The notes: generated by a model not told the origin, from the letters alone. Positions 28,283 through 44,231 are shown, numbered from the stretch's first letter. The stretch is 64,000 bases of DNA from an uncultured Gammaproteobacteria bacterium (GCA_964414795.1 CAYPWV010000002.1:5057-69056); one strand, 5' to 3'. Translations and numbers: made by a program.

Positions 28283-29749
28283 TTAGCCTATTGCTTCAGT
28301 AAACTTCCGATAGATCGCAATCATAGCGTAAGTATCGAGTCCACAGTACGCGAGCATGTCCTTTTTGAGCTGTTCCTTTGCTTCTAGCGAGATCGTCGGA
28401 TCGGTAAGGGTTGCCCAGCTTGCAGATGCTGTGCCACCCTCGTGGATGGCGAGATTGTTATATGAAAGTTCGGGACACATGACTGGCAATACCTTCTTGA
28501 TCGATGCACTTCCACCGAATCTTGAATCAACGTAATGACCTTTCTTCACAATCATCATGAGGTCGTACATGCGGTCGTTGATACTCGCCATGAAGTCCGT
28601 GAACTCGGGCAAGTATTCGCCGATCTCGGCGTTGCGTGATGCCTCAAAACGAGCGTTCCAGACGATAACGCTTCCTGTATCTCCGATGTGATTTTTGAGG
28701 GAGGCGGCAACACCTTGAGCAGGATCGATCATCTCCTCGGTAATATATTCGTAATGCTCGGGTTCTGCATTTGGTTCGCGCACAACATGAACAGAATACT
28801 GAAACACCATTTGCTGATAGGGACGGTAGCTATCAAAAATCGGTACCGCAGGAAAGAACGTTTCGTAATCCAAAAAGTAGAGTGGGTGCTGAAGGCTATC
28901 GAGTTCGGACTTAATCGTTTCTTTATCGACGGAAAGTGTTGGTTCGACTTTTACTCCCGGAAGTTTGATATTCGGCAATTCAGCCATGACATCGGCAGGG
29001 ATCTGCTCGGGCTTCAAAAGCCCTCGTTCAAGGAATGCGACGAGCTTTTCCTTGGAAAGCGAGGTCGCGATCGAATAGATGTGATCGTTATTCAACTCCG
29101 AGAAATAACACGACAGGAATTCGCATTCGGCAGGATTTGTGCAAGAAGAAACGTGCGTGAGACTTGGTGCCTTGTCCCACTCGACCACTGCAAGAGCACG
29201 AGGGATCTCCTTCTTCACCATCGGCATGACCGTTTCTACTTCGTGCGTAATGTCTTTGATGGCAAAAAGCTCGCGAGGATCAATCTCACCACGCCTGACG
29301 TATTGATTGTTGACGTGAACAAGAAACGTTTGCGCGACCCGTATTCCGGACTCCTCAAGACAGATGCGTTGAAACGCCACGTCGATGACGTGCTCCTCTT
29401 TAACGTCCGTCGAGCTTTTTACTTCGTAGATATTCCACGAACCATCGACATTCTTTGTGAGAATGTCGGAGCGGCAGGAAATCTTGCTCGTCATGAACGT
29501 TGGTTGGAGCAATGCCGTCGCCCCAGTTGCAATGGCTTTTTTAGTATTGATCGCCGCAGGCATTCCGAATCCATCAACGTTCACCGCATCGGGAAACAAC
29601 TTCTGTGCCCAACGGTCGACAACATTTCCCTCATCGAAAATTCGCTGAAGTGCGGGATCGGTCGGGGGAAATAAATCTGGTCGCTGCTTTGCAAGCCAAA
29701 GCTCACACGTGCAGCGAAGGAATTGCATGAAGTTGGACTTGGAGAGCAT
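28283..29749 (-). CDS. RecB/Cas4-like PD-(D/E)xK nuclease with C-terminal DUF2779-like (RNase H-like) domain
   Basis: N-terminal 'LSKSNFMQFLRCTCELWL' (RecB-family start). 'YEVKSS...QRI'. C-terminal 'YFLDYETF' DxE and 'CGLDTYAM'. Confidence 0.55.
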   Translation of the reverse strand: MLSKSNFMQFLRCTCELWLAKQRPDLFPPTDPALQRIFDEGNVVDRWAQKLFPDAVNVDGFGMPAAINTKKAIATGATALLQPTFMTSKISCRSDILTKNVDGSWNIYEVKSSTDVKEEHVIDVAFQRICLEESGIRVAQTFLVHVNNQYVRRGEIDPRELFAIKDITHEVETVMPMVKKEIPRALAVVEWDKAPSLTHVSSCTNPAECEFLSCYFSELNNDHIYSIATSLSKEKLVAFLERGLLKPEQIPADVMAELPNIKLPGVKVEPTLSVDKETIKSELDSLQHPLYFLDYETFFPAVPIFDSYRPYQQMVFQYSVHVVREPNAEPEHYEYITEEMIDPAQGVAASLKNHIGDTGSVIVWNARFEASRNAEIGEYLPEFTDFMASINDRMYDLMMIVKKGHYVDSRFGGSASIKKVLPVMCPELSYNNLAIHEGGTASASWATLTDPTISLEAKEQLKKDMLAYCGLDTYAMIAIYRKFTEAIG

Positions 29750-29754
29750 AGGCG

Positions 29755-31899
29755 TTATTCTGTTTCTTTCAGTATGGAAGCAACAAGGGCTTTATATTCT
29801 TCAGGAATGACGTAATTGTCTTTCGGCGCGCCTGGGCGTACGTCAGCAGAAAAGCGCACGATTTGCCTGAGGTGGTCATTCTCTTTTTTGGTAAGGAACT
29901 GGGAAATATTGCTCATAAGATGACCAGTGCGTGTCTGCGTATCTCCAAGACCAGCGGCAAATAGCGCATCACGCAGTGCCTCGCGCTCCATTGGCTCGGT
30001 TTCTTTTACGAGTACCGAAAGGAGGGTGCGGAAATAGCCATTCACCTTTCCGTCTTCCTGCAATGTCGTATGCAGACGTTCGCGCAATTCGTTATCCTCA
30101 TACGCGCCGACCGCATACGAGAGGCTCGGGTGGTCGAAGCTCTCCTTGCGAGCCGTGAGCCGCGATTGAACGTCATCAAGATTGATTTTCCAAGCATGAA
30201 GAAGTGCGCGAAGCATTTCTTCGGTGCGTGTTTGAATGACTTCCGGTGTCCATGCTTCGTACCGCTTGAGATCGGTCGTCATGGCAAAGGCGGAAGTTCC
30301 GTCATTCAAAGTTTGACCGGTATAGATTGCGATCTTTTCCGCGAATGGTTTATTGGAAGCGGATTGATTTTTTGAGGTGTTTTTCTCCTCGGTACTCCCA
30401 ATAAGAAGCGTGAGGTTTCCAAGAGTATTCACGAGTTCGTGCTGTTCCGTGGAACTAAAACGCTTCTCCCATTCCGGCGAAGTCATTGTTTGCGGAAGAA
30501 TATGTTCGATCTGTACGGTCTTGTCGAAATGAATCTCGCGAGCCATCGACGCGTCAGTAAGCGCATATTCAAATTTTGCGAGCGCATAGCGGCACCAGCT
30601 TGCGTTGTAGCAATCGCCGCGAAGATTGGTAACTGCTCGCTCAATAGCCTGAAAGCGATCGAGGTACTGTTCGCAAACGACCGCGATACTTTCCACGGAT
30701 TTTTTCTGGAGAATGTATTCGCGAATAATGAGCATGGCGGGGTCGCGCAAAATCGTTGAGGCATCTCCGGCAACGCGAGACAGCGCGAACAAACGCTCAA
30801 TATGGAACGTCAGCGATTCGAGGGACGGCTTGTCGTATCCCATGCGGACGGCCGCAATGAGAATCGCTTGCCAATATCGATTTCCGCCGTGTTTTAAAAG
30901 ACGAATATTGTTCCGCGCCGACGGCGCGAGCGTATCAAAAACAGAGCCTTGCGTGAGCGACGTATACGCGTCAACGGTCTTGAGCCAATCGTGCAGAAAT
31001 TCGATAGCATCGAGCTTGGCGTCGAGAATGAGATTGGTAATCTCCTTGAAAAGATCGCGCTTCGTGCGCTGTCCCGTCACCGCCTCGCGGTGGAGTATGA
31101 GCGACTCGTCCATGTCGAGTTCCGCATCCTCGGCGCGTTGCCACAAAGAAAGAAACGTTCCCGACTCTCTTTGGAAAAGCGTTTGTACGCGTACCTCGTC
31201 CGCCTCACGTCCCTTCAATTCCTGAAAAAGCGCGTTGAGAAGATAGTTCTTTAGCAGATCCTTCGCGGCAAGTTCCTGCCCGCGATAGTTGATACGTTCA
31301 AAAATGGTGTAGGCGGCGTTCAAGTCGGCAGTGACGATAAGAACGACCGAGACGCGATCAAGAACATAGGAGAGCAGATCAGAGAGGCTTCCTGCGTCTG
31401 CGACGAACGCGGCAAGACGATCACGGAATAACGTCCGCGCAATTGAAAACGATTCTGGTAGGCGTTCGAGATCTTGGGAGACTTCAGGATTCTCCTTCAG
31501 GAAGGCGTGCTCGTAGGCGGTTCGATCCTGCTGTCGCGTTACGAGCGTCGGCAGGCTTCCGCGATGAAGAAGCGTCGATTGAATTTCTGTCGCGACCACG
31601 TTCCCATCCTTTGCGAGCAGATCTCGCATGACCGAGAGAAAAATGCTGGTCGTTGTAAATCGTTGCTGACCGTCAACGATATCGAACTCGCGACCTTTGT
31701 CCTTCTCAATCAAAATGAATGAGCCAAGGAAATATTCCGCGTGTTGGCGACGATACGCATCGAGAACGTCGTCGATATATTCCTCTATCTCTTTCTTGCC
31801 CCAAGAATACGGACGCTGATAGTCCGGAATCACGTAGGTATGTTGTTGGTTGCGAAACAATTCGCCGAGCGTTCGTTGTTCAAGATTCGTTATCTTCAT
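29755..31899 (-). CDS. GmrSD/BrxU-like DUF262 + DUF1524 (His-Me finger) modification-dependent nuclease
   Basis: 'YVIPDYQRPYSW' and 'DIVDGQQRFTT' (DUF262/ParB-like NTPase). C-terminal 'VQIEHILPQ' (DUF1524 HNH-like). Confidence 0.8.
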   Translation of the reverse strand: MKITNLEQRTLGELFRNQQHTYVIPDYQRPYSWGKKEIEEYIDDVLDAYRRQHAEYFLGSFILIEKDKGREFDIVDGQQRFTTTSIFLSVMRDLLAKDGNVVATEIQSTLLHRGSLPTLVTRQQDRTAYEHAFLKENPEVSQDLERLPESFSIARTLFRDRLAAFVADAGSLSDLLSYVLDRVSVVLIVTADLNAAYTIFERINYRGQELAAKDLLKNYLLNALFQELKGREADEVRVQTLFQRESGTFLSLWQRAEDAELDMDESLILHREAVTGQRTKRDLFKEITNLILDAKLDAIEFLHDWLKTVDAYTSLTQGSVFDTLAPSARNNIRLLKHGGNRYWQAILIAAVRMGYDKPSLESLTFHIERLFALSRVAGDASTILRDPAMLIIREYILQKKSVESIAVVCEQYLDRFQAIERAVTNLRGDCYNASWCRYALAKFEYALTDASMAREIHFDKTVQIEHILPQTMTSPEWEKRFSSTEQHELVNTLGNLTLLIGSTEEKNTSKNQSASNKPFAEKIAIYTGQTLNDGTSAFAMTTDLKRYEAWTPEVIQTRTEEMLRALLHAWKINLDDVQSRLTARKESFDHPSLSYAVGAYEDNELRERLHTTLQEDGKVNGYFRTLLSVLVKETEPMEREALRDALFAAGLGDTQTRTGHLMSNISQFLTKKENDHLRQIVRFSADVRPGAPKDNYVIPEEYKALVASILKETE

Positions 31900-34800
31900 A
31901 TTTGCAAAGGCGTAGCTGACTGTCCCGAACCCTCTATAATCCGTTTTTCTTTATCCGTGATTCCGTAAAGATTGAATATCTTTTCATTGATTTCATTCTC
32001 TAAGCCATGTGCCACATCAGAGCTTCCATGATCTTTTCTCAAATCAGTAAGCCGATCAACTAATGAGATCAATTCGGACTCATCTTTGTCATTAGGAACT
32101 ACAACTGGAAGAATTTCAATTTTATATTTCTTCCATCGGTTCGTCCCCATTCCAGAAGTAGTGGAAATTTGCTCAAAATACCATTTACCCAAAGCCGAAT
32201 TGAGAACTGCTACTAAGAATTTAAGATGTTCGCCGGTGAGAATAAAGAGGGTTGCTTCAGCAAAATACCCTTGATCGTCGAAAGCAAATTTTGGCTCATC
32301 GGAAAGCTCCCCCCAAATTATTTTTGGACGAACAAAATCATCGTAGTAATCGCACGAACGCAATTCCCACCAGTATTTTCCCTGATCCTCACGGTCGTAT
32401 AACCCCTTTCCCTTTGCTTTAACCGTAGCACCAATATGTTGCAAATAGCTATAAATAGAGGGGTGCTGCGTCTTGAAAAATTCTTCGGGATTCATATCTC
32501 CTCGGTGTAAATCAGTCCATCCAGATGGAATGACAAACATCCACTCATCACCGAACTCATAAAAGAACTTTTGAACGTTTCTTCCTCTCAATATAGGTTT
32601 AATCAATTCTGCAGATTGAGGATTTTCTCTAACTATTTCTTCACGTACAGTTCCGCCAAAAATAAATGCCTGATTATATCCTGTTTTAATGCCGAAGTTT
32701 ATTCTTATTCCAAGTTCTTTTACTGGCTTGCCGATGTCATCTATTTTTTGTTTGAGATTTTGTGAATCTTCGTTGCCGACAAGCCATCCGTTCTGCTCAT
32801 CAAGCTTCTCAATGTTGACTGAGTTTTTTTCTACGAAATTTGCTAGCGATGTTCGTTCGTGTTGCTCACTTGTTAGCACGGCACCTGTTAGTTTCCCTTG
32901 CCATGAACCCTTGCGAGCAAAAAAGATGCAGGCTTCGACAGTGGCCGCTTCAAAAACTTGTGCATTCTCGATGTTAATTAGAATAAATGGGTCGGCTTTT
33001 GTAACCAGGAATTTACGCAATGATTTTCCGTAAAGAGTTCTTAGCCATGAATTTGAAGTGATATAAGAAATGATTCCACCCTTGGAAAGAAGATTGGCAC
33101 CACGTTCATAAAAAAGACAGTATAGATCCCCTCGTTTCTCATACGTTGAGTAAACGCTTGCATAACTTGCACGCTGTACCTCAGATATCTTCATTTTTTG
33201 AAGCTGGACGTAGGGCGGATTACCAATAACCACTCCAAATCCATTTTCAATTCCAAACATTATTTGTGGATCAAAAAATGTAGCCGTATTTTCAGCATTA
33301 AATGGCTGATAGGTTTTTAGTTGCTTTTCTCTATCCGAAGAGAACATTCCGTCCATTCCGTTTTTTCCTTTAACGAGGGTTTCAAATTTTTCCCGTAATT
33401 CCTGCTTTCGGGAATGCTTTCTTGCTCGGAAATATTCGTCACGAATTTCTATGAGCTGATCTTCTTTGAGTGTGTCGTAAAGTCCTTCAGCATGGTCAAG
33501 TGGCATCAATGAATTCGCGCAGACGAACTTGAAATCAAGGTTTGGCAATGGCTCAATACGACCATCTGATACATCCTCATCAACGATGATTGAAAGCCAA
33601 GCACGAAGACGGGCGATCTCTACCGCCATCGGCTCAATATCAACGCCAAAAATGTTATTTTTGATAATCGTTAGTTTTTTCTTGTAGGGATCATAATCGC
33701 TTTCCAAGCGATCGTATGTTTCCAGGAGAAGCTGGAGCATGCCCATTGGAAAAGCACCCGATCCACAAGCTGGGTCGAGCACCGTAAGCTCTTCTAGAGC
33801 TTCGAGAATGTCGTGCTTATACGGTTTAAGGTCTCCCCGATAATTCCGTTGCTGATCCCGGAACTCATGTGGTTTTTTATCAAGTAACTTTGCAAGTTGT
33901 TCGTCACGATCCGTCGTTTCAGGAATCCTAGATCGGAGATATTCTCGTAAACTCTCCTTACACATGTAATCAACGATCTCCCGGGGGGTGTAGAATGCAC
34001 CCTTCGCCTTGCGAGCCTGTTCTCCGGTTTCTTCGATCTGTTCCGCGAGCAAATTTTCAAAAATACGACCCAACATTTCAGGATCAATTGCTACCTGCTG
34101 AAACGTACTTGAGGACTCATCGGTCGTAAAGTTATAGCGGCGAAGAAATTCGTAGAGACGATCAAAATAATCTGCCGGAAAAGAAACGCGGACATCACCC
34201 TCATGGTCGCCAGTTTTTGCCTCGAACAAACCTCCGTTGAGAAATGGAGTTTTTATATCCAGTCCACTGATACGTTCGTCAACTGGTGTGTTAAGAATTC
34301 TGAAAAATAATGTTTCGAGTTTTGTGCGATAATGTTCAGATGCGGCTAAACCATTTGTTTGAAAGTAATTAACTTCTGTATTTAGAATTCCTTTTTTATC
34401 AATGAACCAACAGAAGATGATGCGACCAATAAGACGGTTTACGAATAAAGCCGCCGAATGATCATCAAACAGGTCTTTTGATTTTGAAAGGAGATGTTGT
34501 TTGAGCTCTGTAAAGAATGAGCTGATCGTCTTGTAAAAGACTTTATTTATTGCCTCAAAGTTAAAGCTATCCCAAAGTATTTGATGGAGTTGCGCTTTGT
34601 TCGAAAAATTAAAAGGCTGAGTCCATTTTGAAAAAATCTCGGAAGCAGTTGGAGAAAGACGGTCGCGCAACTCGATAACACGTAAAGCATGTTCTTTGCT
34701 TAAGACAACGAAAACCCGATCAGCTTTTTCTGGAATGACGAAATCTATACCAACATTTTCTGATGCAAGCCAGGGCGCATCTTCGAAGTTAGGTGTAATC

Positions 34801-35132
34801 GCTGTCACCCAATGAATGACGGATTTATTCGTGTTCTGTACCCAGTAAGTTTTAAAGTCGAGTTTTCGATCATTTCCCTTAGCCACTTCGTAGACTGCCC
34901 GTCGGTCAGCATAACCATCGGCGGGCATGAACCAGTGACCATTCGAGCGAATTTTTCCCGCTGAATCGCTAAATAACCTCCAGCCGTCAGGTTCGCCCGA
35001 AACACCAAGAAGAGCGATGACAGCGTTAATCACCGCCTGCGTTCCTTGGAAGGAATGATTTGCAGCAAGCGAGTGTAGGGCATTATCGATCTGCCGAAGT
35101 AGCTGATTGGGGTTATTCGTTTGTTCTGGCAT
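31896..35132 (-). CDS. MmeI/PglX-like (type IIG/IIL-like) gamma-class N6-adenine DNA methyltransferase, 1078 aa
   Basis: 'FLNGGLFE' motif. 'GAFYTPREIVDYM' (motif X). 'LDPACGSGAFP' (motif I). 'GNPPYVQ' (motif IV). Long C-terminal TRD-like region. ATGA overlap with the downstream gene. Confidence 0.8.
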   Translation of the reverse strand: MPEQTNNPNQLLRQIDNALHSLAANHSFQGTQAVINAVIALLGVSGEPDGWRLFSDSAGKIRSNGHWFMPADGYADRRAVYEVAKGNDRKLDFKTYWVQNTNKSVIHWVTAITPNFEDAPWLASENVGIDFVIPEKADRVFVVLSKEHALRVIELRDRLSPTASEIFSKWTQPFNFSNKAQLHQILWDSFNFEAINKVFYKTISSFFTELKQHLLSKSKDLFDDHSAALFVNRLIGRIIFCWFIDKKGILNTEVNYFQTNGLAASEHYRTKLETLFFRILNTPVDERISGLDIKTPFLNGGLFEAKTGDHEGDVRVSFPADYFDRLYEFLRRYNFTTDESSSTFQQVAIDPEMLGRIFENLLAEQIEETGEQARKAKGAFYTPREIVDYMCKESLREYLRSRIPETTDRDEQLAKLLDKKPHEFRDQQRNYRGDLKPYKHDILEALEELTVLDPACGSGAFPMGMLQLLLETYDRLESDYDPYKKKLTIIKNNIFGVDIEPMAVEIARLRAWLSIIVDEDVSDGRIEPLPNLDFKFVCANSLMPLDHAEGLYDTLKEDQLIEIRDEYFRARKHSRKQELREKFETLVKGKNGMDGMFSSDREKQLKTYQPFNAENTATFFDPQIMFGIENGFGVVIGNPPYVQLQKMKISEVQRASYASVYSTYEKRGDLYCLFYERGANLLSKGGIISYITSNSWLRTLYGKSLRKFLVTKADPFILINIENAQVFEAATVEACIFFARKGSWQGKLTGAVLTSEQHERTSLANFVEKNSVNIEKLDEQNGWLVGNEDSQNLKQKIDDIGKPVKELGIRINFGIKTGYNQAFIFGGTVREEIVRENPQSAELIKPILRGRNVQKFFYEFGDEWMFVIPSGWTDLHRGDMNPEEFFKTQHPSIYSYLQHIGATVKAKGKGLYDREDQGKYWWELRSCDYYDDFVRPKIIWGELSDEPKFAFDDQGYFAEATLFILTGEHLKFLVAVLNSALGKWYFEQISTTSGMGTNRWKKYKIEILPVVVPNDKDESELISLVDRLTDLRKDHGSSDVAHGLENEINEKIFNLYGITDKEKRIIEGSGQSATPLQI

Positions 35133-38100
35133 ACATCAGAAGCGGTTCCGCCCCGTTAGGCCGCTCAACACGGTCAATATTACGTTGAAGTGTTCGGGCA
35201 ATATCAAGAATCGTTTGAACGTCTTGTAGGACCGAACCATTTTCATTCTTTGTTTTTACAATACGACGCACACACTTTTTCATATCTTCACGAGCAAGGA
35301 CATTCTTCGTACCAAATGCCATTCGTACAACATCAAGATCGTCTTGCGAAAAATGAAGTTCGTACATGATCCGAAGAACGTCTCCTTGTTGTCCAACAGG
35401 AGCGATGACCACTTCGTCATCATGATAAGCCTCTGCGGCTTCCTTCGCGCGGGCTAAGAGATTAACCCGATCAGCACTGATGTGATCAGCTTGACGTTCA
35501 TTGCTCCGTTGAATTGTTGAACGAAGCCATTCAAGAGCCTGTAGTTGAGGCACGTGGTGCATTTCGCGTCCATCTCTATTCATGGCTACAAAAGCATAGC
35601 CAAGGGTAACTTCAGAAGAGCTTTGAAGAGAAACGAGTGAGAGGATATCGGGGCGTTCGTCACCGCGAGATGTCGCGGTCGGCATCACCCCCCATTTCCT
35701 TTTTGGAATATTGTATATTTCCGCCTTCTGTTCTGGTGTGTGATTTGGATCGTGATGGAATCTCTTCAAGTCTGAAACAAACTCATCTTCGGCGAGCAAG
35801 AAATCAGCTTCGCCCTCAGCATTTTGAATCGCTTCCATGCGCGCCTCGACATCACTACTGTAAACGTCCTTCCAAGAATCAACGAACTCTATCGGATTCG
35901 CTTTTTCATCGAGCACTGGAGTGTCCGTACCGATAGTGTTACGAATGAGATCGATCTTTCGTTCAAGGCGTGCGACCAAACGCAGATATTCGTCCAATTG
36001 TCCCTCTGGAGAAATGTTATAAATGTAGACATCCTTGAATGATGTTCCAAGACGATTCACTCGACCGTTTCTCTGGATCATACGAACGGGATTCCAGTGA
36101 AGGTCATAGTTCACAAGAATGCCGCAGTCTTGAAGATTCTGTCCTTCTGACAAGATATCGGTCGAAAAAAGATAGGATAATTCTTTTTCTCCATCCTTCA
36201 GTGCGTGTTGTTTGGAGACAGGAGAGAATCGACCCGCAAGCGATTCTGCATCCTCTCGATTATTTGAAGATAAAAATGCAGCGTTATCTTTATTTACGAC
36301 ATTCGTACGCGTTTCAACCACTTCACGCAGATAATTAATCGTGTCAGCGTAATAGGAGAAAATAAGGACTTTTTTACCAGCTGGTTGACGCTTTGCAAGA
36401 TCCTCAATGAGACCAATAAAAGTCTTGAGTTTTGAGTCGTCTTCGTGAAGGACGACTAATTGCTGACGAAGCAAATCAATTAACTCACGTTCCTTTGCAA
36501 CGTCGGCTTTGAGCGCATTGACTACGTAATTATTTTCATCGATTGTGTCGTGAATGAATTCCTCAGGCATTTCAACTTCTTCCGCATCTTTATCCTCAAC
36601 GTCACCAAGGATTTCGTCGATTTCATCAATGTTCGTTAACGTAATAATTTTCCCTTGGCGTAACCCACGCTCAAAGATCTCGAGCTTGTGATCGTAAGTC
36701 TCCAGCGATGAATGAATTGCGCTGACCGAAGATTCGAGACGTTTCAGGAACATCGTACGGAGAATGCCGTAGATACTAAGCTGAGAGAACAAACTGTTTC
36801 GTTCATCGCTCGAAAGCTTCATTTCCTTAATTTCTTCGCGGGTCTTTCCGTAAAATTTTGTTTGATACATCTGCCAACGGTAGGGCAAGAAACCGAGCAG
36901 AAGGATCGTACGATAAATTAAGGCGATGGGAGAAGTAACATCCGCTGTCTCACCTGAGGATTGCGCGTTACTTATCTGATCGATCGGATGTGTGAGCCGC
37001 TGAGTGGCATCAACGATATCGCTAATCGTCAAAGAGTACAGCGAGTCTAGATCGACCGAATCAGTGGTGATGTCTCGAATTCTTTTTGCAACCTCTTCGT
37101 TAAACCGGTATGTACGAACATCTGGAACGACTTTGGGGAATGTTTGTAGAACACCCTGATCATCTACAAGTCCACCGTATTCCTTCTCAATCCCTTGGCG
37201 TGTTCGACGGACAACGAACTCACGGAGGATCGGAGACATGGTTGCTCGAACATACCCGAAATCAATCGACTTTCCTTCCTCGGCATCTCGTTTAATTGAG
37301 CGTGCAAGATTTTCTACTGCCTGATTGAAGTCAACGATTGTGGTCTGCTTGTTCTTTTTATCTGGCACGGCAAAGCGTAGAAGACCTGCTTCTCCTCGGC
37401 ACGCAAGCAAGATTTGGTTGGTGATATCGGAGAGCTGGTTGTTAATTGGTGTGGCAGTCAAAAGCAAGACATGAGCTTTTGGATTCGCGCCAATCCATTC
37501 AGTGATTTGCTTGAAGCGTTTTCCGGAACGACTTTTAAGGTTATGCGATTCATCAATCACGAATAATCCAACGGCAGCAATTGAATCAAGACCTTGTCTG
37601 CGCTCAATCTCGCGAGGATTTTGCAACGTGATAGGCGTAGAGCCATCCATCCTTTGGGTCGCCATTTGTTTCTCCCATTGCACGGTAAGAGATTTCGGAC
37701 AAATAATCTCAACACGCAAGCCGGATTCTTTATACTGCTTAATGACCTCAATCGCCGTGATAGTTTTTCCTAATCCTACCGAGTCAGCTAGCATTGCAAC
37801 CTTATGCTTCCGTAACCGACGCATGAGGCCGTGAACGTTTTTCATTTGAAAATCGTGCAGGGTAAATGTTCCACGGGTGGTTTCCTTCAAATCTTCGTCT
37901 TCCAACTCCTCTTTATAAATTTCGTACAAAGTTTTGATGTACATCTCATATGGCGTAAAAAGCATGTCGCCATGTGAAGATTGGGAAATAATCGCGGTAA
38001 ACGATTGATCCCACGGAAGAGACTTATTCCAAAATTGGTCAAACCATGCGAGGTGACCGACCTCCTGATCTTCGACGCGTGGAGTGTAAGTAACGATACG

Positions 38101-38583
38101 ATGATCGGCTTCGAGTGCGTTGAGTTCGGTATTGGCGGTCAAGCCGTTCTTCGTGAAGTTAGATGAGCCAATAATGCCCACCGCTTCAGGGGATTCGTAG
38201 TTTCCAAAAATATAACACTTCGCGTGGAAGAATTCTTCTTTATAAACCCTAACTTCAAGTACGCCTTTTGCGATTAAATCTTTGATTGTAACGACGGACT
38301 CTCTAAAAGTTTCATTGTGTTCAAGACGTTCCAAGTCTGAGAAAAAATCCTTATCGGGAAAGTCGACCTCGGGTTTTTTTAATTGGTATCGGGGAATGAG
38401 AGGTTCGCGACCAATAAGCAAACGGATTTTCTTGCAGTCCTTTAGTTGGGGTAAAACAAGCGTTGTACCGGGGAGATCCCAATAGCCAGTAGCGATCGAG
38501 ATTTCTTCGTGTTTAGTGGCAAGCTCCTGAAATGCAGCAAGAAGTGACTGTCGGTGATTATCGATGATTCGAGAAGTTGCCAT
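35113..38583 (-). CDS. phospholipase-D-family nuclease domain fused to an SNF2-family helicase (~1156 aa)
   Basis: N-terminal HKD 'HAKCYIFG...GSSNFTKNG'. Helicase 'FVIDESHNLK', 'LLLTATPINN', 'NPVRMIQRNGRVNRLG'. Start at the internal ATG 38581-38583 (MATSRII); the ORF extends to 38634. Confidence 0.8.
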   Translation of the reverse strand: MATSRIIDNHRQSLLAAFQELATKHEEISIATGYWDLPGTTLVLPQLKDCKKIRLLIGREPLIPRYQLKKPEVDFPDKDFFSDLERLEHNETFRESVVTIKDLIAKGVLEVRVYKEEFFHAKCYIFGNYESPEAVGIIGSSNFTKNGLTANTELNALEADHRIVTYTPRVEDQEVGHLAWFDQFWNKSLPWDQSFTAIISQSSHGDMLFTPYEMYIKTLYEIYKEELEDEDLKETTRGTFTLHDFQMKNVHGLMRRLRKHKVAMLADSVGLGKTITAIEVIKQYKESGLRVEIICPKSLTVQWEKQMATQRMDGSTPITLQNPREIERRQGLDSIAAVGLFVIDESHNLKSRSGKRFKQITEWIGANPKAHVLLLTATPINNQLSDITNQILLACRGEAGLLRFAVPDKKNKQTTIVDFNQAVENLARSIKRDAEEGKSIDFGYVRATMSPILREFVVRRTRQGIEKEYGGLVDDQGVLQTFPKVVPDVRTYRFNEEVAKRIRDITTDSVDLDSLYSLTISDIVDATQRLTHPIDQISNAQSSGETADVTSPIALIYRTILLLGFLPYRWQMYQTKFYGKTREEIKEMKLSSDERNSLFSQLSIYGILRTMFLKRLESSVSAIHSSLETYDHKLEIFERGLRQGKIITLTNIDEIDEILGDVEDKDAEEVEMPEEFIHDTIDENNYVVNALKADVAKERELIDLLRQQLVVLHEDDSKLKTFIGLIEDLAKRQPAGKKVLIFSYYADTINYLREVVETRTNVVNKDNAAFLSSNNREDAESLAGRFSPVSKQHALKDGEKELSYLFSTDILSEGQNLQDCGILVNYDLHWNPVRMIQRNGRVNRLGTSFKDVYIYNISPEGQLDEYLRLVARLERKIDLIRNTIGTDTPVLDEKANPIEFVDSWKDVYSSDVEARMEAIQNAEGEADFLLAEDEFVSDLKRFHHDPNHTPEQKAEIYNIPKRKWGVMPTATSRGDERPDILSLVSLQSSSEVTLGYAFVAMNRDGREMHHVPQLQALEWLRSTIQRSNERQADHISADRVNLLARAKEAAEAYHDDEVVIAPVGQQGDVLRIMYELHFSQDDLDVVRMAFGTKNVLAREDMKKCVRRIVKTKNENGSVLQDVQTILDIARTLQRNIDRVERPNGAEPLLMYARTNE

Positions 38584-38707
38584 AGGAAAAATATTCCCTC
38601 GAATTTTATCAGAAAATGACCACAGGAGCAACATAATTGTTCATGCCCAGGAAAGTAGAATAATCTGACCTAATACTAGCAAATATTGGCGTTTTTTAAT
38701 CAATTAG

Positions 38708-38790: not shown

Positions 38791-40122
38791 ATGTACGGAC
38801 AAAATACGAATAACGAAACGCAGGCTATACCAATCCGCTACTGCCTTTATGCAAGAAAATCGTCCGAGGACGATGAACGGCAAGCCTTATCGATTGAGAG
38901 TCAGGTTAAAGAGGTTATGGAATTAGCAGTGAGAGATGGATTGAGCGTTATAGAAGTTCGTCGAGAAAGTCACTCCGCAAAAAGCTCTGGGTCACGCCCA
39001 GAGTTTAATCGTTTAATAGGAGACATTCGTGAAAAGAAATTCGATGGAATCCTCACATGGGCAGCAGATCGTATCAGTCGTAACGCTGGTGATCTTGGTA
39101 CGGTCGTCGACTTGATGGATCAAGGCTTGCTTAAAGAAATCAGAACGCATGGACCCCGATTCACCAACTCACCAAGTGACAAGTTCATGCTCATGATGAT
39201 GTGCGGTCAAGCAAAGCTGGAAAACGATAACAAAGGCGTAAACGTGAAGCGAGGCTTCCGAGCGAAAGTAGAGATGGGCTACAGACCGAATATGTCACCG
39301 CTCGGCTATCTCCATGACAAATATGCAGAAAAGGGTGCCCGTAGAATTTTCATGGATCCCGAGCGTGGACCGATGGTTAAAGAGATCTTCCATAAGGTTG
39401 CATACGAAGGTTGGACGGGACGCAATATCCAGAACTATATGAAAGAAAAAAACTTCACCACGCGCAAAGGAAAAAATGTTTCGCTGAGTATGATCTATCG
39501 CATGATGGATAACCCTTTCTACACGGGTCGATACGAATTTCCGCAGAAGAGCGGTCAGTGGTATCAGGGAAAACATGAGCCGTTAATAACAAAAGATGTG
39601 TTCGAGCGGGTTCAGGAAGTCATGAAAGTAACAGGAACACGGGTACCGCCAGGAACACACGAATTCGGATTCACACGAATGTTTAAATGTGGAAACTGTA
39701 ATTCAGGAATCAGTGCTGAGGAAAAGAAGAAGCGTTTGAAGGACGGCACGATAAAGCGATACGTTTACTACGGATGCATGAAACGCTGGGTGACCGGCTG
39801 TAAGGAGCCGTACATTCGAGAAGAAGAGCTATTGAGCCAGCTTTGTAAAATCATTGAGAGCGTCGACATCGATGAACTCGCCGCTGTCGCGCGGATTAAA
39901 GAGGAAATAGATCGACTAACCAAGATGATCTCGAGTCTCGGTGGTCACATTGCAACCGCAAAAGTTGCCGAAATCATGCCAGACATCGACGTATATGCAT
40001 GTGCAAAATACATCCTTAAAGAAGGGACAAAAGAGGAAAAACGAGATTTACTGGGACACGTTCGAACTGAGCTAACAATCACTGGAGGAACTATCACCAA
40101 TCGTGCTAAGAGAAAGAAATGA
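38791..40122 (+). CDS. large serine recombinase, paralogous to 7059..8378
   Basis: 'YCLYARKSSEDDERQALSIESQ', 'GILTWAADRISRNAGD', 'CGNCNSG...YYGCMKR' Zn ribbon. Roughly half of residues identical to the first recombinase by eye. Confidence 0.85.
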   Translation: MYGQNTNNETQAIPIRYCLYARKSSEDDERQALSIESQVKEVMELAVRDGLSVIEVRRESHSAKSSGSRPEFNRLIGDIREKKFDGILTWAADRISRNAGDLGTVVDLMDQGLLKEIRTHGPRFTNSPSDKFMLMMMCGQAKLENDNKGVNVKRGFRAKVEMGYRPNMSPLGYLHDKYAEKGARRIFMDPERGPMVKEIFHKVAYEGWTGRNIQNYMKEKNFTTRKGKNVSLSMIYRMMDNPFYTGRYEFPQKSGQWYQGKHEPLITKDVFERVQEVMKVTGTRVPPGTHEFGFTRMFKCGNCNSGISAEEKKKRLKDGTIKRYVYYGCMKRWVTGCKEPYIREEELLSQLCKIIESVDIDELAAVARIKEEIDRLTKMISSLGGHIATAKVAEIMPDIDVYACAKYILKEGTKEEKRDLLGHVRTELTITGGTITNRAKRKK

Positions 40123-41205
40123 CCGTTGATGGAGATGCATCATGGCTCTAGGCGTAATGTTCCCAAGTACAAAACCAAATAGATGATCTGGTGAAATAAT
40201 TCTGTGCGGGAACCAAAAACTTTCTGGATCTTCGCAGGTAAGGCAAATGCTACCCGATCTTGAAACGTTAATTCTCAACTTTCCGTTCAAAAGTTTGTAA
40301 TCTACGTTATCGAAAGCGCCTCCACTTTTTACGGTGCTACCAGGATTTAGACCTGCTTTTTCTACAGACCAGTGAACCAACGAATCGACATTTATGGGTT
40401 TGTTAAGCACAAACTGAATTGAAAAGTATTGCCTACCGAAGCAAGTTAGGATCGAATTTAAATCCACTTTGCACGCTGGCTTATAGCGAATGCTGGTGAT
40501 GAAACTTTTGCACTTAACTCCGTTTTGCTGAGAATTTGGTTGACCCTTAGGTGATGTGTGCGTATCCACCGAAATCTGCGGTGCAGTGATCTTAGAAACG
40601 AATTCTTCTCTTTTCTCAACTATCTTTTTATCGTCAAAGCCGCTCTTTTTCAAGGCATCAACAACCAGATTGTTCAAATTAGCCAAAAAAGCTTTGGATG
40701 TTTGTAAAACTTCGTCCTCCATTTTATCTTCCGTGGGAATGTAGTCTCTGAATTCAATAATGGTTTCTTTTATCGCTGTACTAGTTCCTATACGCCAAAG
40801 GTATATGTCATCTGTAATCTCACCAGCAATACCAATCAGCAATTGCTGTTGAGTCGGGGTAATATCTCTGTTGTGTGCTAGCGCGTTGCGGAAATTTTCC
40901 GCTACAGAGAGATACTGCATCGTCTTTTCCCACTCTTTGAAAACTTCTTCAAATAAAGCCTTATGTTTTGCGAGAAGAGTTTTTAGATGCGAGAACTCGG
41001 AGTATGCCAATGGCAGATCATAAATAGCAACATCTCCTCTGGTTGATCTGTCGGATTTAGCTTTTTCTTGCAAAGCTCTATAGCCAGACCATTCCTCAAC
41101 CAGTCCAACATCTTTATTGTCAGTCCAAGAAACGCCAAACTTATCTGATAAAACATCGTGGATCAGATTCCGCAGTTCGTTTTCTATCATTTTAATTGGA
41201 TCCAT
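40072..41205 (-). CDS. HEPN-like domain protein (N-terminal Rx4H motif) with a C-terminal domain of unknown function, 377 aa
   Basis: 'ENFRNALAHNRDITP' (R-x4-H, Swt1/Abi-type HEPN signature). Confidence 0.5.
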   Translation of the reverse strand: MDPIKMIENELRNLIHDVLSDKFGVSWTDNKDVGLVEEWSGYRALQEKAKSDRSTRGDVAIYDLPLAYSEFSHLKTLLAKHKALFEEVFKEWEKTMQYLSVAENFRNALAHNRDITPTQQQLLIGIAGEITDDIYLWRIGTSTAIKETIIEFRDYIPTEDKMEDEVLQTSKAFLANLNNLVVDALKKSGFDDKKIVEKREEFVSKITAPQISVDTHTSPKGQPNSQQNGVKCKSFITSIRYKPACKVDLNSILTCFGRQYFSIQFVLNKPINVDSLVHWSVEKAGLNPGSTVKSGGAFDNVDYKLLNGKLRINVSRSGSICLTCEDPESFWFPHRIISPDHLFGFVLGNITPRAMMHLHQRSFLSLSTIGDSSSSDC

Positions 41206-41206
41206 A

Positions 41207-42775
41207 TTACTTTCCTATATCGACATTACCTTTTAAAAGGTTGCTGAAAAAGGCATTGTAAACACGATCAAGAAAATCTACTTTGTAGATATCTGTCTTT
41301 CCAGATACCTGATCGAGTATGGATTGAACAATGCTTTGATTCTTATTCTTTGAATGCTGGCAAATGAGCTCGAATTCCCAACAGCCAAAAACATAGAAAT
41401 CATTGGATGATTCCGTCATTCTTTCTTTCAGTTTTTCACGAGCGTACCTGTTAATCGAGAACATTTCATCTAAAAATACGATCAAGTTAACCACCTTCTG
41501 ACCCTTGTAAGGTATACCTTGGACTTTATCTTCTCGAAGATGTTTCTCCTTTTTTACGAGCTTATCCAATTCCTGCCCCAAATCATTCAATAGATTATCG
41601 ATGCCTGGCCCATTTTCTTGTTGGATACCTGCCTTGGAGTAGTTATCTATTTTCCGTTTCTTACATTCAATTTGAACAATAAATTCATCCGATATCAAAA
41701 GCCAGTCAGCACTCTTCCATAAATCCTTTCCCACACTATAAGTCGTTTCAGAGATGATTTTTGAGGATGATAGAGATTCGATCCCATAGTCTTTAATAAG
41801 TGCCCCGATGTAATCTTCAAAAACACTGCCGATGTCTCGATAGAGAATGGATTTATTTTCCTCATCAAGCCTATCAAGTAAAACGTAATATAGCCCTTCA
41901 AAGACTCCGAATAGGAAGTCTGCTTGGGATGGAATAATGTACTGTTCGTTTTTCTTTTCCAATTCCGTACGGATTACCGGGAATCGTCTGAGCGCATTAA
42001 ACTCGTATTTCTTTAACAATGAGTCAGTAAGTTCGTACTTCTTACTTTCATCCTGAAATTGTTTCTGCGTGACCGCAAATATGCCGAATAACTTCAGTAT
42101 ATTATTTTCCGTTAATAGCGGTTTTAACTGCTCAATGGAAGTATTTGTATAGCTATCCATTAAAAATGAATCCGCAAAACCTTCGCCAGCTCGGGGGCAG
42201 TAATTTGCGTATATACACGTACCTATCTTCATGGCATCGAAAAGCCCCATTCCTAAAGCGAGATTCAACTTTTCCCCTAAAATAGGATTTTTTTCAAAAA
42301 CTTTTGTAAAAATCCAATGATATCTTCCGATGATGCCGGAATAATGCCTGAGGTAATGCCATTGATGATAGGTTGACCTCAAAATCCAAAGCCACCCATC
42401 CTCTTTTAATGTTTCGCCTTTCAACTTTTGGATTCCATCCTCAAGATTTCCATACGAATAGATAAATTGAGTTAAGTCGAAGTCGTTAAATTGACGATCT
42501 TGCTTTTGGCAATTTAGAAGTATCCGCTTGGCAGCAAAAGCCAGAAAGTCCCTTGTGAGCATTCCGGTACGCAGTTTTACCTTTTCCGAAGAATAGAATT
42601 CAAATTCAAGATTGACATTCACCCAAACTTGATTGCCCATGAGGGCTCCGAGCTTTTGTAGCGACATCAGGGAGCCTACCAGATCAAAGTTTTTACTCAT
42701 TGCATCGAGGTCGTCAACGCTAAAATTTCTTGAGAATGAGATATCGGATGAGGTTTGAATCTTTATGTCTGACAT
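41207..42775 (-). CDS. hypothetical 522-aa protein with a possible PD-(D/E)xK nuclease motif
   Basis: 'SADWLLISDEFIVQIECKKRK' (D...E-x-K). No other recognisable family. Confidence 0.45.
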   Translation of the reverse strand: MSDIKIQTSSDISFSRNFSVDDLDAMSKNFDLVGSLMSLQKLGALMGNQVWVNVNLEFEFYSSEKVKLRTGMLTRDFLAFAAKRILLNCQKQDRQFNDFDLTQFIYSYGNLEDGIQKLKGETLKEDGWLWILRSTYHQWHYLRHYSGIIGRYHWIFTKVFEKNPILGEKLNLALGMGLFDAMKIGTCIYANYCPRAGEGFADSFLMDSYTNTSIEQLKPLLTENNILKLFGIFAVTQKQFQDESKKYELTDSLLKKYEFNALRRFPVIRTELEKKNEQYIIPSQADFLFGVFEGLYYVLLDRLDEENKSILYRDIGSVFEDYIGALIKDYGIESLSSSKIISETTYSVGKDLWKSADWLLISDEFIVQIECKKRKIDNYSKAGIQQENGPGIDNLLNDLGQELDKLVKKEKHLREDKVQGIPYKGQKVVNLIVFLDEMFSINRYAREKLKERMTESSNDFYVFGCWEFELICQHSKNKNQSIVQSILDQVSGKTDIYKVDFLDRVYNAFFSNLLKGNVDIGK

Positions 42776-42801
42776 AATTTATGTAATTTCCATCAGAAAA
42801 A

Positions 42802-43386
42802 TTATGCCAAATCAATATACTTCGAAATGAACCTTTGCTTCGCTCCCAGCAACAGTGCGTCCGTTGTCAAAATTTTGTCGTACTTGTAAATCTTTCCTCC
42901 ACTTTTGAATGCCTTCAAATAGTGATCGAGATAAATCTGGGGATTTAAAAGGGTTACTTCACCTTCCTTTCTCCAACCCTGTTTCATCGTAAAGTCATAA
43001 GAGAACTCATGACCTGCGGCATTTAGCCAACGGTGAGCCAAAACATTGCGCCATTCATGAATCTCGGTCGCAATCGAAGAAAACGTTGTGTCATGTGTAT
43101 CGCCATCGACAAAGTTCTCCAAAAATAAGCGATACCCCTGCGAGCCTTGTTTATCAAAAAACCCAAAGGCAATAGTTAAGGCAACAGAATGTACCCCTAA
43201 AATCATCAGAGCAGTTTGTGGATTTTTCGGATTAGCAAAAGTTGCTCCAATCTCATTGTTGAAATAATTGTGGATTGAGTTAATTAAGGTCTCTATAATT
43301 TCAACGGGGGCGCCATCTTCAAATCGCTTCAATCGCCTTTCTTTGGTTTCACCGAGGTGGGCATTATTTTTCATATCCGAACACAT
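42802..43386 (-). CDS. HEPN-like domain protein (194 aa)
   Basis: 'EIHEWRNVLAHRWLN' carries the same RN-x-LAH pattern as the 40072..41205 product. Confidence 0.45.
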   Translation of the reverse strand: MCSDMKNNAHLGETKERRLKRFEDGAPVEIIETLINSIHNYFNNEIGATFANPKNPQTALMILGVHSVALTIAFGFFDKQGSQGYRLFLENFVDGDTHDTTFSSIATEIHEWRNVLAHRWLNAAGHEFSYDFTMKQGWRKEGEVTLLNPQIYLDHYLKAFKSGGKIYKYDKILTTDALLLGAKQRFISKYIDLA

Positions 43387-43639
43387 CGTATCAAATTTGC
43401 GCTAATTCTGTGCTGGTAGGGGTTAGAGCCTATGCCTGGGGATCGAACCATCAACTTCATTCGGGAATATACTCAAAACAGTGCTTTCGTCCGGTTCCTC
43501 GTCCCAGCCCTATCATAAGCGTACACCTGGGTATCGAACTTTTTACCGAACCAGATAAACCAAGCGGGTAACAAAAAACCGCTACTTTCGTAGTGGTTTT
43601 TTGACTGAACGCATGTGGGACACCACACACGTTCACTCA

Positions 43640-43714
43640 TGGCTCCGGGGGAGGGGATCGAACCCTCGACCTGAGGATTAACAGTCCTTCGCTCTGCCGC
43701 TGAGCTACCCCGGA
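43640..43714 (-). tRNA. tRNA-Asn (anticodon GTT)
   Basis: Minus-strand sequence folds as a cloverleaf. Acceptor TCCGGGG/CCCCGGA (7 bp). D-arm GCTC..GAGC. Anticodon loop CTGTTAA. T-arm GAGGG-TTCGATC-CCCTC. Discriminator G and encoded CCA. Confidence 0.8.
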
Positions 43715-44231
43715 AGGGTCTTGTGTTTATACATTTACGGGGAAAGCTCCCTAGAAATATATTTCGGCATGTATTGTAACCGGGCCTAGGATAACAAATG
43801 TTGCATCGTGACGCAAGATAAAAATCGGGATAAAAAATTTCCCCCATAACTCCATTGCGGAGCGACGGGGGAAATTCTTATTTTGCAGCTGCAGTTTCAA
43901 GTTTGCGCATGCGGATTGCCTTGGCCTTGCGGCGCTTTGCAAATCCGTCTACACGTTCGATGGCAAAAGCAGCATTTTTGCCTTTGCGAGAGAGATGATG
44001 GCGGGAGGGCATAGGTGAGAGTTATCAAGTAATGAAGAGGTGAAGTTTGAAGTGGACTGGTGAGGCTAGAAGGCTGGGTAAAAGTTTATACCTAGCCCGC
44101 CTAGCCCAACTAGCCTTCTCGTTAATTTCGAAAAAATACTACCCTTTCTTACCATTCTGGTCAAATATTTGCCAAATTTTATGGGGAAAAGTCCTTGACG
44201 AATCAAAAAAACTCCGCCAAAACTGAGACAT

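Follow-up and report, generated by a model that had tools for sequence, protein, structure and literature searches.

In a 64,000-nucleotide stretch of DNA (GCA_964414795.1, CAYPWV010000002.1:5057-69056; hereafter the window, from whose first letter all positions are counted), three genes, called here A, B and C, are packed head to tail between a large serine recombinase (LSR) and a tRNA-Asn gene. The genome hosting the region is assigned to Patescibacteria (CPR, candidate phyla radiation). The three genes probably represent defence modules of one gene each, independent of one another, which are stacked in the cargo slot of an LSR-borne island next to tRNA-Asn. Their families are distributed independently, and the interval that they occupy, 40072-43386, matches very closely a variable cargo slot that has the LSR and tRNA-Asn as its conserved anchors. 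The initial annotation of this DNA had suggested that they might be one system, in which A and C, sharing a HEPN-type motif, could heterodimerise. The distribution of the genes does not bear this out, as A and C each occur alone and neither was found with B outside the lineage of the window. The features on which the argument is built are the following.

42802..43374, minus strand: gene A; the ATG at 43374 yields 190 aa, an upstream one at 43386 would yield 194 aa
41207..42775, minus strand: gene B, 522 aa, GapS1-like; the N-terminal region is helical, the C-terminal domain a PD-(D/E)xK nuclease
40072..41205, minus strand: gene C, 377 aa, with an N-terminal Swt1/Abi2-type HEPN domain and a C-terminal domain
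38791..40122, plus strand: LSR, 443 aa, with Resolvase, Recombinase and Zn_ribbon_recom domains
43640..43714, minus strand: tRNA-Asn (GTT), found by ARAGORN
43033..43050, minus strand: codons for R-N-V-L-A-H, the Rx4H motif of A (R109 to H114, counted on the 190-aa protein)
41660..41707, minus strand: D357 ... E370-C-K372, catalytic codons of B as judged by family invariance
40873..40890, minus strand: R-N-A-L-A-H (Rx4H) codons of C, R106 to H111

Independent distribution of A, B and C

B homologues (40-67% identity) were retrieved at 34 loci from genome and metagenome collections, and relatives of A and C were sought in these loci by tblastn (E<=0.01) and by family hidden Markov models (HMMs; E<=1) on all open reading frames (ORFs) of at least 50 aa. 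In none of the 34 B-anchored loci was a relative of A or C detected by tblastn or profile HMM, nor is any other neighbour of B conserved across the 34, as expected of a single-gene organisation. B homologues are flanked by genes for D12 methylases, restriction-like proteins, a Dsr1-like protein and similar products; defence neighbours in relatives of the locus also include a type II restriction endonuclease and a caspase-like protein. Neither B nor C resides at any of the 14 loci anchored on A (L046-L059); besides the lineage of the window, five lineages have A but neither B nor C. C, in turn, occurs without A or B in at least five lineages, and the full trio is missing from the eight other C-anchored loci (L037-L039, L041-L045). 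A, B and C have been found together only in L035 and L036, which represent the same genome, and in L040, which belongs to the same element lineage. Co-occurrence across diverged genomes, the mark of a multi-gene system, was not observed. The contexts of C homologues (identity of C in brackets) and the neighbours of A homologues are listed here.

L040 (C 65%): tRNA-Asn, A (84%), B (78%), C and a convergent LSR (80%); same element, diverged relative
L037 (C 58%): same tRNA flank (95% at the nucleotide level) and an LSR 98% identical; an unrelated 451-aa gene instead of A and B
L039 (C 56%): the contig opens with 51 nt matching the tRNA 3' end and flank, followed by C, a 127-aa ORF and an LSR (81%); no A or B
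More distant C homologues (C 37-38%): no recombinase, A or B
L046, neighbour of A: a 1,265-aa unknown
L048, neighbours of A: a Bsp6I-type restriction enzyme with a LexA-C5 methylase
L051, neighbours of A: an operon with S24, TIR-like and caspase-like genes
L057, neighbour of A: a 437-aa unknown, in a region resembling an integrative and conjugative element
L059, neighbour of A: nothing between A and the LSR

The genes are tightly packed and co-directional, with no internal terminator, and their order is kept in L040 at the identities given above. The Rx4H motif is invariant in the families of both flanking proteins, and the pattern RN-x-[LIVMA]-A-H, searched in six frames, occurs twice in the 64-kb window, in A and C only (mononucleotide shuffles of the window contain it 0.22 times on average, with a maximum of 2). 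All this would suit a dedicated three-component system, in which an A/C HEPN heterodimer forms a composite RNase site and B is the sensor or DNase partner. Such a system is improbable, given that none of the 34 B loci hosts A or C, that five lineages have A but lack C and at least five have C but lack A, and that L037 has swapped out A and B yet retains C together with a nearly identical LSR. In addition, A and C belong to different families: the hhalign probability of homology is 2%, only the motif segment can be aligned, and the idea that the two are relatives was rejected. Characterised HEPN enzymes are generally homodimers (PMC3710099), and GAPS1 proteins, to which B is related, act singly. 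The initial annotation had itself held that the trio not being conserved elsewhere as a unit would speak against its proposal. This is essentially the case, because A, B and C are distributed independently and the trio recurs only in its own lineage (L040).

Tight gene spacing would be compatible also with a toxin-antitoxin-like module, in which one HEPN protein is the toxin, and a neighbour, either B or the other HEPN protein, the antidote. We regard this as very improbable. Library searches revealed no MNT or other antitoxin-type domain in A, B or C, and B is a 522-aa nuclease normally found alone. The neighbours of A and of C vary by context, and there is no constant antidote partner, because they differ in every context.

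Two ORFs in the C-anchored loci were considered as possible counterparts of the genes of the window. An ORF of 197 aa in L038 (7224-7817), situated upstream of a distant homologue of C, has no similarity to A; the 451-aa gene of L037 (361-1716) has no similarity to C or to known families, and no Pfam or PADLOC match. The L038 product contains the stretch WWRDYNKVKH, a visual hint only, with no library match, and the L037 product ends with SRKISDAHLH, an Rx5H-like motif. Judging from these residues, the two may be additional HEPN-like proteins.

A variable cargo slot between a recombinase and a tRNA gene

The limits of the slot are drawn by comparison with L037. Nucleotide identity between the two loci is 0.9-1.0 along the LSR, up to its stop codon at about 40120, and 0.57-0.68 in C; similarity is missing over A and B, and identity is again 0.95-0.98 in the tRNA flank from 43437 onward (95% over 43437-43715). 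A and B cannot be aligned with L037 because the unrelated 451-aa gene takes their place. LSR copies are 98, 81 and 80% identical in L037, L039 and L040, respectively. Conservation of the LSR and of the tRNA flank around differing cargo implies that the interval is a variable cargo slot between two anchors. The view of the cassette as cargo of an integrative element, put forward in the initial annotation, is supported by this mosaic of conserved anchors and replaced cargo; LSR domains, atypical composition, tRNA adjacency and cargo varying between close relatives are all found at the locus. The AT-richness noted at first sight is real, as the GC content of the cassette is 0.38-0.41, against 0.44-0.46 on the recombinase side and 0.49-0.50 beyond tRNA-Asn, and the placement between a serine recombinase and tRNA-Asn was confirmed by domain search and ARAGORN.

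The gene structure corresponds largely to what had been read from the sequence, namely three minus-strand genes of 194, 522 and 377 aa. ORFs span 42802-43386, 41207-42775 and 40072-41205, and are separated by 26 nt (A-B) and 1 nt (B-C). The motifs quoted, WRNVLAHRW in A, FRNALAHNRD in C and DWLLISDEFIVQIECKKRK in B, are all present. The first gene has to be shortened. Both the family alignments and the gene calls in Logan assemblies of the same genome (L035, L036) use the second ATG, at 43374, and A is therefore most likely 190 rather than 194 aa long. No internal terminator was found by scanning the coding strand within the A-B-C cassette, and, from spacing and absence of such signals, the three genes are likely co-transcribed. 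Co-transcription does not imply that the products form a complex.

Two sequences located between tRNA-Asn and the cassette deserve mention.

43437..43455, no strand assigned: pseudo-tRNA T-arm repeat, TGGGGATCGAACC... (letters at 43437-43449), a direct repeat of the tRNA-Asn T-arm
43572..43603, no strand assigned: hairpin flanked by A and T runs, an inverted repeat with 14-nt arms, 93% complementary

The pseudo-T-arm TGGGGATCGAACC is invariant in the window, L037, L039 and L040. Homology to L037 stops at 43437, and since conservation ends and variable cargo begins at this very position, the pseudo-T-arm (43437-43455) may be a remnant of the attachment (att) site of the serine-recombinase element. 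Repeat searches found neither a second copy of the pseudo-T-arm nor the far boundary of the element, and other short repeats at the cassette boundaries, evaluated as att-like sites, look like chance. A second T-arm-like fragment is found at 43529-43540, between tRNA-Asn and A. The hairpin is kept in four aligned loci (the window and its relatives), and by its sequence looks like a terminator in both directions.

At the opposite end of the slot, the convergent 3' ends of C and LSR overlap by 51 nt in the window (40072-40122), 111 nt in L037 (2774-2884) and 75 nt in L040 (4157-4231). The tail of C within the overlap is serine-rich, poorly conserved, and missing from distant C homologues.

Cargo varies also on the other side of the LSR, where the window hosts SNF2+PLD helicase, MmeI-type methylase, GmrSD and DUF2779/Cas4-like genes, L037 hosts DUF5655, SNF2 and N6_N4 methylase genes, and L039 a type I restriction-modification (R-M) system. 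In the window the four genes form a tightly packed block on the minus strand (28283-38634), which looks like an R-M or DISARM-like defence operon.

35113-38634, minus strand: SNF2+PLD helicase, 1,173 aa; PADLOC 'HKD+Snf2' 1e-46, DrmD-like
31896-35132, minus strand: MmeI/Eco57I-type methylase, 1,078 aa; 20-nt overlap with the helicase gene
29755-31899, minus strand: GmrSD; 4-nt overlap with the methylase gene
28283-29749, minus strand: DUF2779/Cas4-like protein

Literature searches on serine recombinases with HEPN defence cargo, and on serine-recombinase islands of Patescibacteria, retrieved nothing.

Gene B encodes a distant GapS1-like nuclease

B consists of a helical N-terminal region (approximately residues 1-330) followed by the nuclease domain. 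The protein has no match in Pfam. It matches the NCBIfam model GapS1 (NF047931) with an E value of 9.5e-9 and 34.6 bits, over residues 212-381 only, and thus falls far short of the curated cut-off, which requires at least 320 bits over the full length. The relationship emerges through intermediate sequences. Close homologues of B form 67 clusters, chiefly from Patescibacteria metagenome bins, and an exhaustive search with the B-family profile retrieved 1,253 representative clusters with members of similar length (563 clusters at E<=1e-10), the matches being mostly near full length. Among the distant members of this superfamily that were sampled, 37 of 39 match the GapS1 model (best value, 5.7e-33). 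As the profile links B to GapS1 via intermediates, but B itself scores far below the cut-off, sequence comparison places B in a distant clade of the GapS1-like superfamily, outside the curated GapS1 family.

The PD-(D/E)xK-like motif that the initial annotation had spotted in the middle protein is borne out by invariant residues and by a restriction-endonuclease-like fold. Residues E343, D357, E370 and K372 are invariant in 40 B-family sequences. D357 is invariant also in the alignment of the distant superfamily, where the consensus retains DW...IECK. The AlphaFold2 model of B (pLDDT 91.7, pTM 0.90) has beta-strands at 339-372 that bear the catalytic residues, and the C-terminal domain adopts the restriction-endonuclease fold, with the D...(D/E)xK residues placed on the alpha/beta core. 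GAPS1 is known as a single protein, in which D313 and K328 are essential; it is triggered by the T7 capsid protein, and dormancy results (bioRxiv 10.1101/2023.03.28.534373). The 15-residue spacing between D357 and K372 in B equals that between D313 and K328 in GAPS1. The remark in the initial annotation that no described system came to mind is thus only partly right: no gene of the cassette belongs to a curated family, but B is of the published GapS1 kind.

Some loci carrying B homologues have peculiarities of their own. In L001 (1880-5404) and L015 (3499-6996) an ORF of 1,165-1,174 aa, related to Dsr1 (PADLOC 1.1e-41), is located directly upstream of the B homologue, and extends to its start or slightly into it according to script-made ORF calls. 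The Dsr1-like ORF and the B homologue may be a two-gene unit in this clade. The 1,173-aa SNF2+PLD protein of the window had been considered as a counterpart of this ORF of about 1,170 aa; the two are unrelated. In L008 (7001-8512; also in L007 and L028) the B homologue is conserved over its full length, yet contains six in-frame stop codons, several of which align by eye with glycines of the B protein of the window. This suggests, as far as can be judged by eye, that the L008 host reads a stop codon, probably UGA, as glycine, as in genetic code 25.

Gene C encodes a Swt1/Abi2-type HEPN protein

The HEPN-type N-terminal domain of C covers approximately residues 1-130. Residues 4-118 match Pfam HEPN_Swt1 (PF18731) with an E value of 0.0037 and 18 bits, against a gathering threshold of 27.5 bits. 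Seven of the ten family members match the same model, the best at 1.1e-4, all below threshold. The same residues match PDC-M34B, a profile of the unpublished PADLOC candidate system PDC-M34, at 1e-11; nothing on PDC-M34 was found in the literature. The family is small (nine homologue clusters). E103, R106, H111 and R113 are invariant in its ten sequences, and N107 is conserved in at least 90%. The remaining 240 residues or so, at the C-terminus, evolve fast, and have no library match. Similarity to Swt1/Abi2 is therefore consistent at the domain level and goes with a conserved Rx4H, and by sequence C is a protein with a Swt1/Abi2-type HEPN N-domain joined to a C-domain of novel sequence. The assignment to Swt1/Abi-type HEPNs made at the outset is supported, in the case of C, by the sub-threshold PF18731 matches in 7/10 members and by PDC-M34B. 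Catalytically active bacterial Swt1/Abi2 HEPNs occur within R-M and helicase operons (Anantharaman et al. 2013, PMC3710099), and the surroundings of C in the window fit this pattern.

Gene A encodes a conserved protein with a probable HEPN fold

The A family is unannotated and strongly conserved. It comprises at least 111 clusters of proteins of about 190 aa, 50-72% identical, and the mean column identity over 51 sequences is 58%. The motif W-R-N-x3-H-x-W is constant, W108, R109, N110, H114 and W116 being invariant in the 51 sequences; an Rx4-6H motif with a polar residue after the arginine, typical of HEPN proteins, is therefore conserved throughout. In the AlphaFold2 model (pLDDT 91.6) R109 and N110 lie at the end of a helix spanning residues 98-113, and H114 is the first residue of the following loop. 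HEPN domains have the Rx4-6H motif at the end of core helix 3 and the start of the next loop (PMC3710099), and the motif of A is placed at the same position in the model. Database searches are negative. A has no family match in Pfam, PADLOC or NCBIfam, the 51 members giving just scattered single matches at chance level, and its model has no significant match in Foldseek. Sequence-profile searches of the PDB with all three families retrieved nothing, PHROGs gave nothing meaningful, and A was not found in viral contigs and plasmids. Of the HEPN signature attributed to A, motif invariance and HEPN-like placement stand, and a profile or Foldseek link to HEPN families is missing. On the basis of the model, A is a probable, though unproven, divergent HEPN fold.

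Linkage of the A family to large serine recombinases

The LSR is the most constant neighbour of A, being close to it in five of six independent lineages, with differing cargo in between. In L059 the two genes are convergent and separated by 16 nt, and in L057 and L058 the LSR is immediately upstream of A. The distance is 2.6 kb in L048 and L049, where a Bsp6I-type R-M system is interposed, about 6 kb in L051, and 2.7 kb in the window and L040. The LSRs next to A in L048 and L059 are 50-51% identical to that of the window and have the same length; taken with the relative in L005, which is equally long, the identities to the window LSR are 50-57%. In both L048 and L059 housekeeping genes start on the far side of A, after one small ORF. 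The link is not obligatory, because L037 and L039 carry LSRs 98 and 81% identical to that of the window without A, and L046 carries A with no recombinase within 6 kb. The data suggest a layout of the type A ... cargo ... LSR, albeit in a small sample.

A could accordingly be the companion of the LSR element, as an addiction or stabilisation toxin, a directionality factor or another accessory factor marking one end, B and C being captured cargo. This is possible, although unlikely. The proximity of LSR to A in 5/6 lineages, the membership of the L048 and L059 enzymes in the LSR family of the window, the housekeeping genes beyond A in the same loci, the position of A in the window, abutting the pseudo-tRNA boundary, and its unusual conservation (58% in 51 sequences) all point in this direction; but LSRs up to 98% identical do without A in L037 and L039, and L046 has A without recombinase. 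The LSRs are longer in L051 (581 aa) and in L057 (597 aa), the latter enzyme has no BLAST match to the window LSR at E<=1e-3, and neither is matched by tblastn. The sample is small, and biased towards long contigs. Moreover, no recombination directionality factor is known to have a HEPN fold.

A broader proposal would be that the A family and the family of LSRs of about 430 aa jointly define a mobile cargo-slot platform, found in Patescibacteria and other uncultured bacteria. A would be at one edge and the LSR at the other, defence cassettes being captured and swapped in between, and A would serve the element by stabilisation, directionality or cassette capture instead of being an ordinary defence gene. 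The slot would be empty or hold, for instance, a GapS1-like nuclease, Swt1-HEPN proteins or a Bsp6I-type R-M system. Taken as a whole, this is quite unlikely; if true, the platform would represent a new kind of serine-recombinase-based cassette-exchange system.

Two loci related to this theme should be mentioned. L005 (5640-8530, the same as L025), a locus of a Bacillota metagenome bin, has a B homologue directly preceded on its own strand, at a distance of 47 nt, by a recombinase with 50% identity to the window LSR, and has no A or C; it is a further case of this LSR family carrying a B-type nuclease. In L051 (3554-6576; also in L052-L055) the A-family gene is preceded by genes encoding an S24 peptidase, a 123-aa TIR-like protein, a caspase-like Peptidase_C14 and a 153-aa unknown. 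The TIR-like protein matches ThsB_TIR at 5.5e-4, below threshold, and the Peptidase_C14 protein matches the PADLOC caspase at 1.9e-22. The block is possibly an uncharacterised defence operon.

Proposed mode of action

Independent defence modules remain the explanation that we favour. A, B and C would have been stacked head to tail in this lineage, and would be probably co-transcribed, while their families are distributed independently. By analogy with GAPS1, B would be sensor and effector in a single polypeptide: a phage component would be sensed by the large N-terminal region, whereupon the C-terminal PD-(D/E)xK domain (D357, E370, K372) would cleave nucleic acid and halt the infected cell. 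Both trigger and target are modelled on GAPS1. C would be a latent RNase of the Abi type, an activity suggested by motif and profile similarity. RNases of the HEPN superfamily are expected to need no metal and to cleave at a composite active site built by a dimer. HEPN enzymes characterised so far are generally homodimers, and the HEPN domain of C (R106, H111) would presumably be homodimeric as well; the rapidly diverging C-terminal domain is likely the part conferring specificity, or the sensor. A, small and probably of HEPN fold (R109, H114), would either be one more RNase module acting by itself or accompany the recombinase element. Anti-phage function of the three products is plausible rather than established.

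Some observations weigh against this explanation. The very high conservation of A and its recurrent linkage to recombinases fit a role in element maintenance better than a typical fast-evolving defence gene. Functional coupling in this lineage would be consistent with the gaps of 1 and 26 nt, and with the A-B-C order kept in L040, where nucleotide identity is about 75%. Finally, the contexts sampled are six independent ones for A, and about seven for C.

Each part of the cassette is of a known kind, and none is a member of a curated family, B missing the GapS1 cut-off by a wide margin, C remaining under the Swt1 threshold, and A being unannotated. If the genes are independent defence modules, little is new in principle: the locus would be a defence island on an integrative element, in which a GapS1-type nuclease of a distant clade is accompanied by Abi-type HEPNs, and the finding of HEPN and restriction-endonuclease-fold genes in a mobile defence island would not surprise a specialist. 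The GapS1-like superfamily is extended into Patescibacteria, on whose anti-virus repertoire little turned up in literature searches. The analysis also flags the A family, strongly conserved and unannotated (at least 111 clusters), with its probable HEPN fold and recurrent LSR link, and provides a clean natural case in which the cassette flanked by tRNA gene and recombinase has been replaced; this could help to define how defence genes are exchanged by serine-recombinase islands. The linkage of the A family to LSRs and the clean cassette replacement both merit further attention. The locus is also a reminder that operon-like, tight packing of genes sharing a motif is not evidence of a multi-component system.

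Comparison with known systems

B and GAPS1 (GapS1, NF047931) are of similar size (522 aa, against the 455 positions of the GapS1 profile), and share the C-terminal PD-(D/E)xK domain. Both usually occur as single genes in the defence islands that mobile elements carry. Unlike GAPS1, B belongs to a separate, distant clade, chiefly from Patescibacteria metagenome bins, to which trigger, target and anti-phage role would extend by analogy only.

The first 120 residues or so of C match the profiles of both Abi2/Swt1 HEPNs (PF18731) and PDC-M34B, and retain the E...R-N-x3-H-x-R signature. As other bacterial Swt1/Abi2 HEPNs, C is found beside R-M and SNF2-helicase genes. It differs in that all Pfam scores of the family are under the gathering threshold, and the C-domain of about 240 residues has no detectable relative; in contrast to PDC-M34, no PDC-M34A-type partner is present at the C locus.

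A resembles stand-alone or toxin-type HEPN RNases, such as YutE/DUF86, HepT of the HepT-MntA pair and AbiV, in the invariant Rx4H at the end of a helix. In contrast to these proteins, with which it shares no sequence-profile relationship or significant Foldseek match, the model of A has an extra small beta-sheet and two additional C-terminal helices; unlike HepT, A lacks an MNT partner. Its conservation far exceeds that of typical Abi proteins, and it shows linkage to serine recombinases.

As for the element, the LSR shares the Resolvase, Recombinase and Zn-ribbon architecture with the Ccr recombinases of staphylococcal cassette chromosome (SCC) elements. Among NCBIfam models it is most similar to CcrB (1e-36, a score far short of the cut-off), and it is not a Ccr or XisF equivalog. 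SCC elements likewise carry exchangeable cargo, and cargo differs here between close relatives; GMT islands are likewise rich in defence genes. What sets the present island apart from both is its Patescibacteria host, and the location of the LSR in mid-island, between two variable cargo regions.

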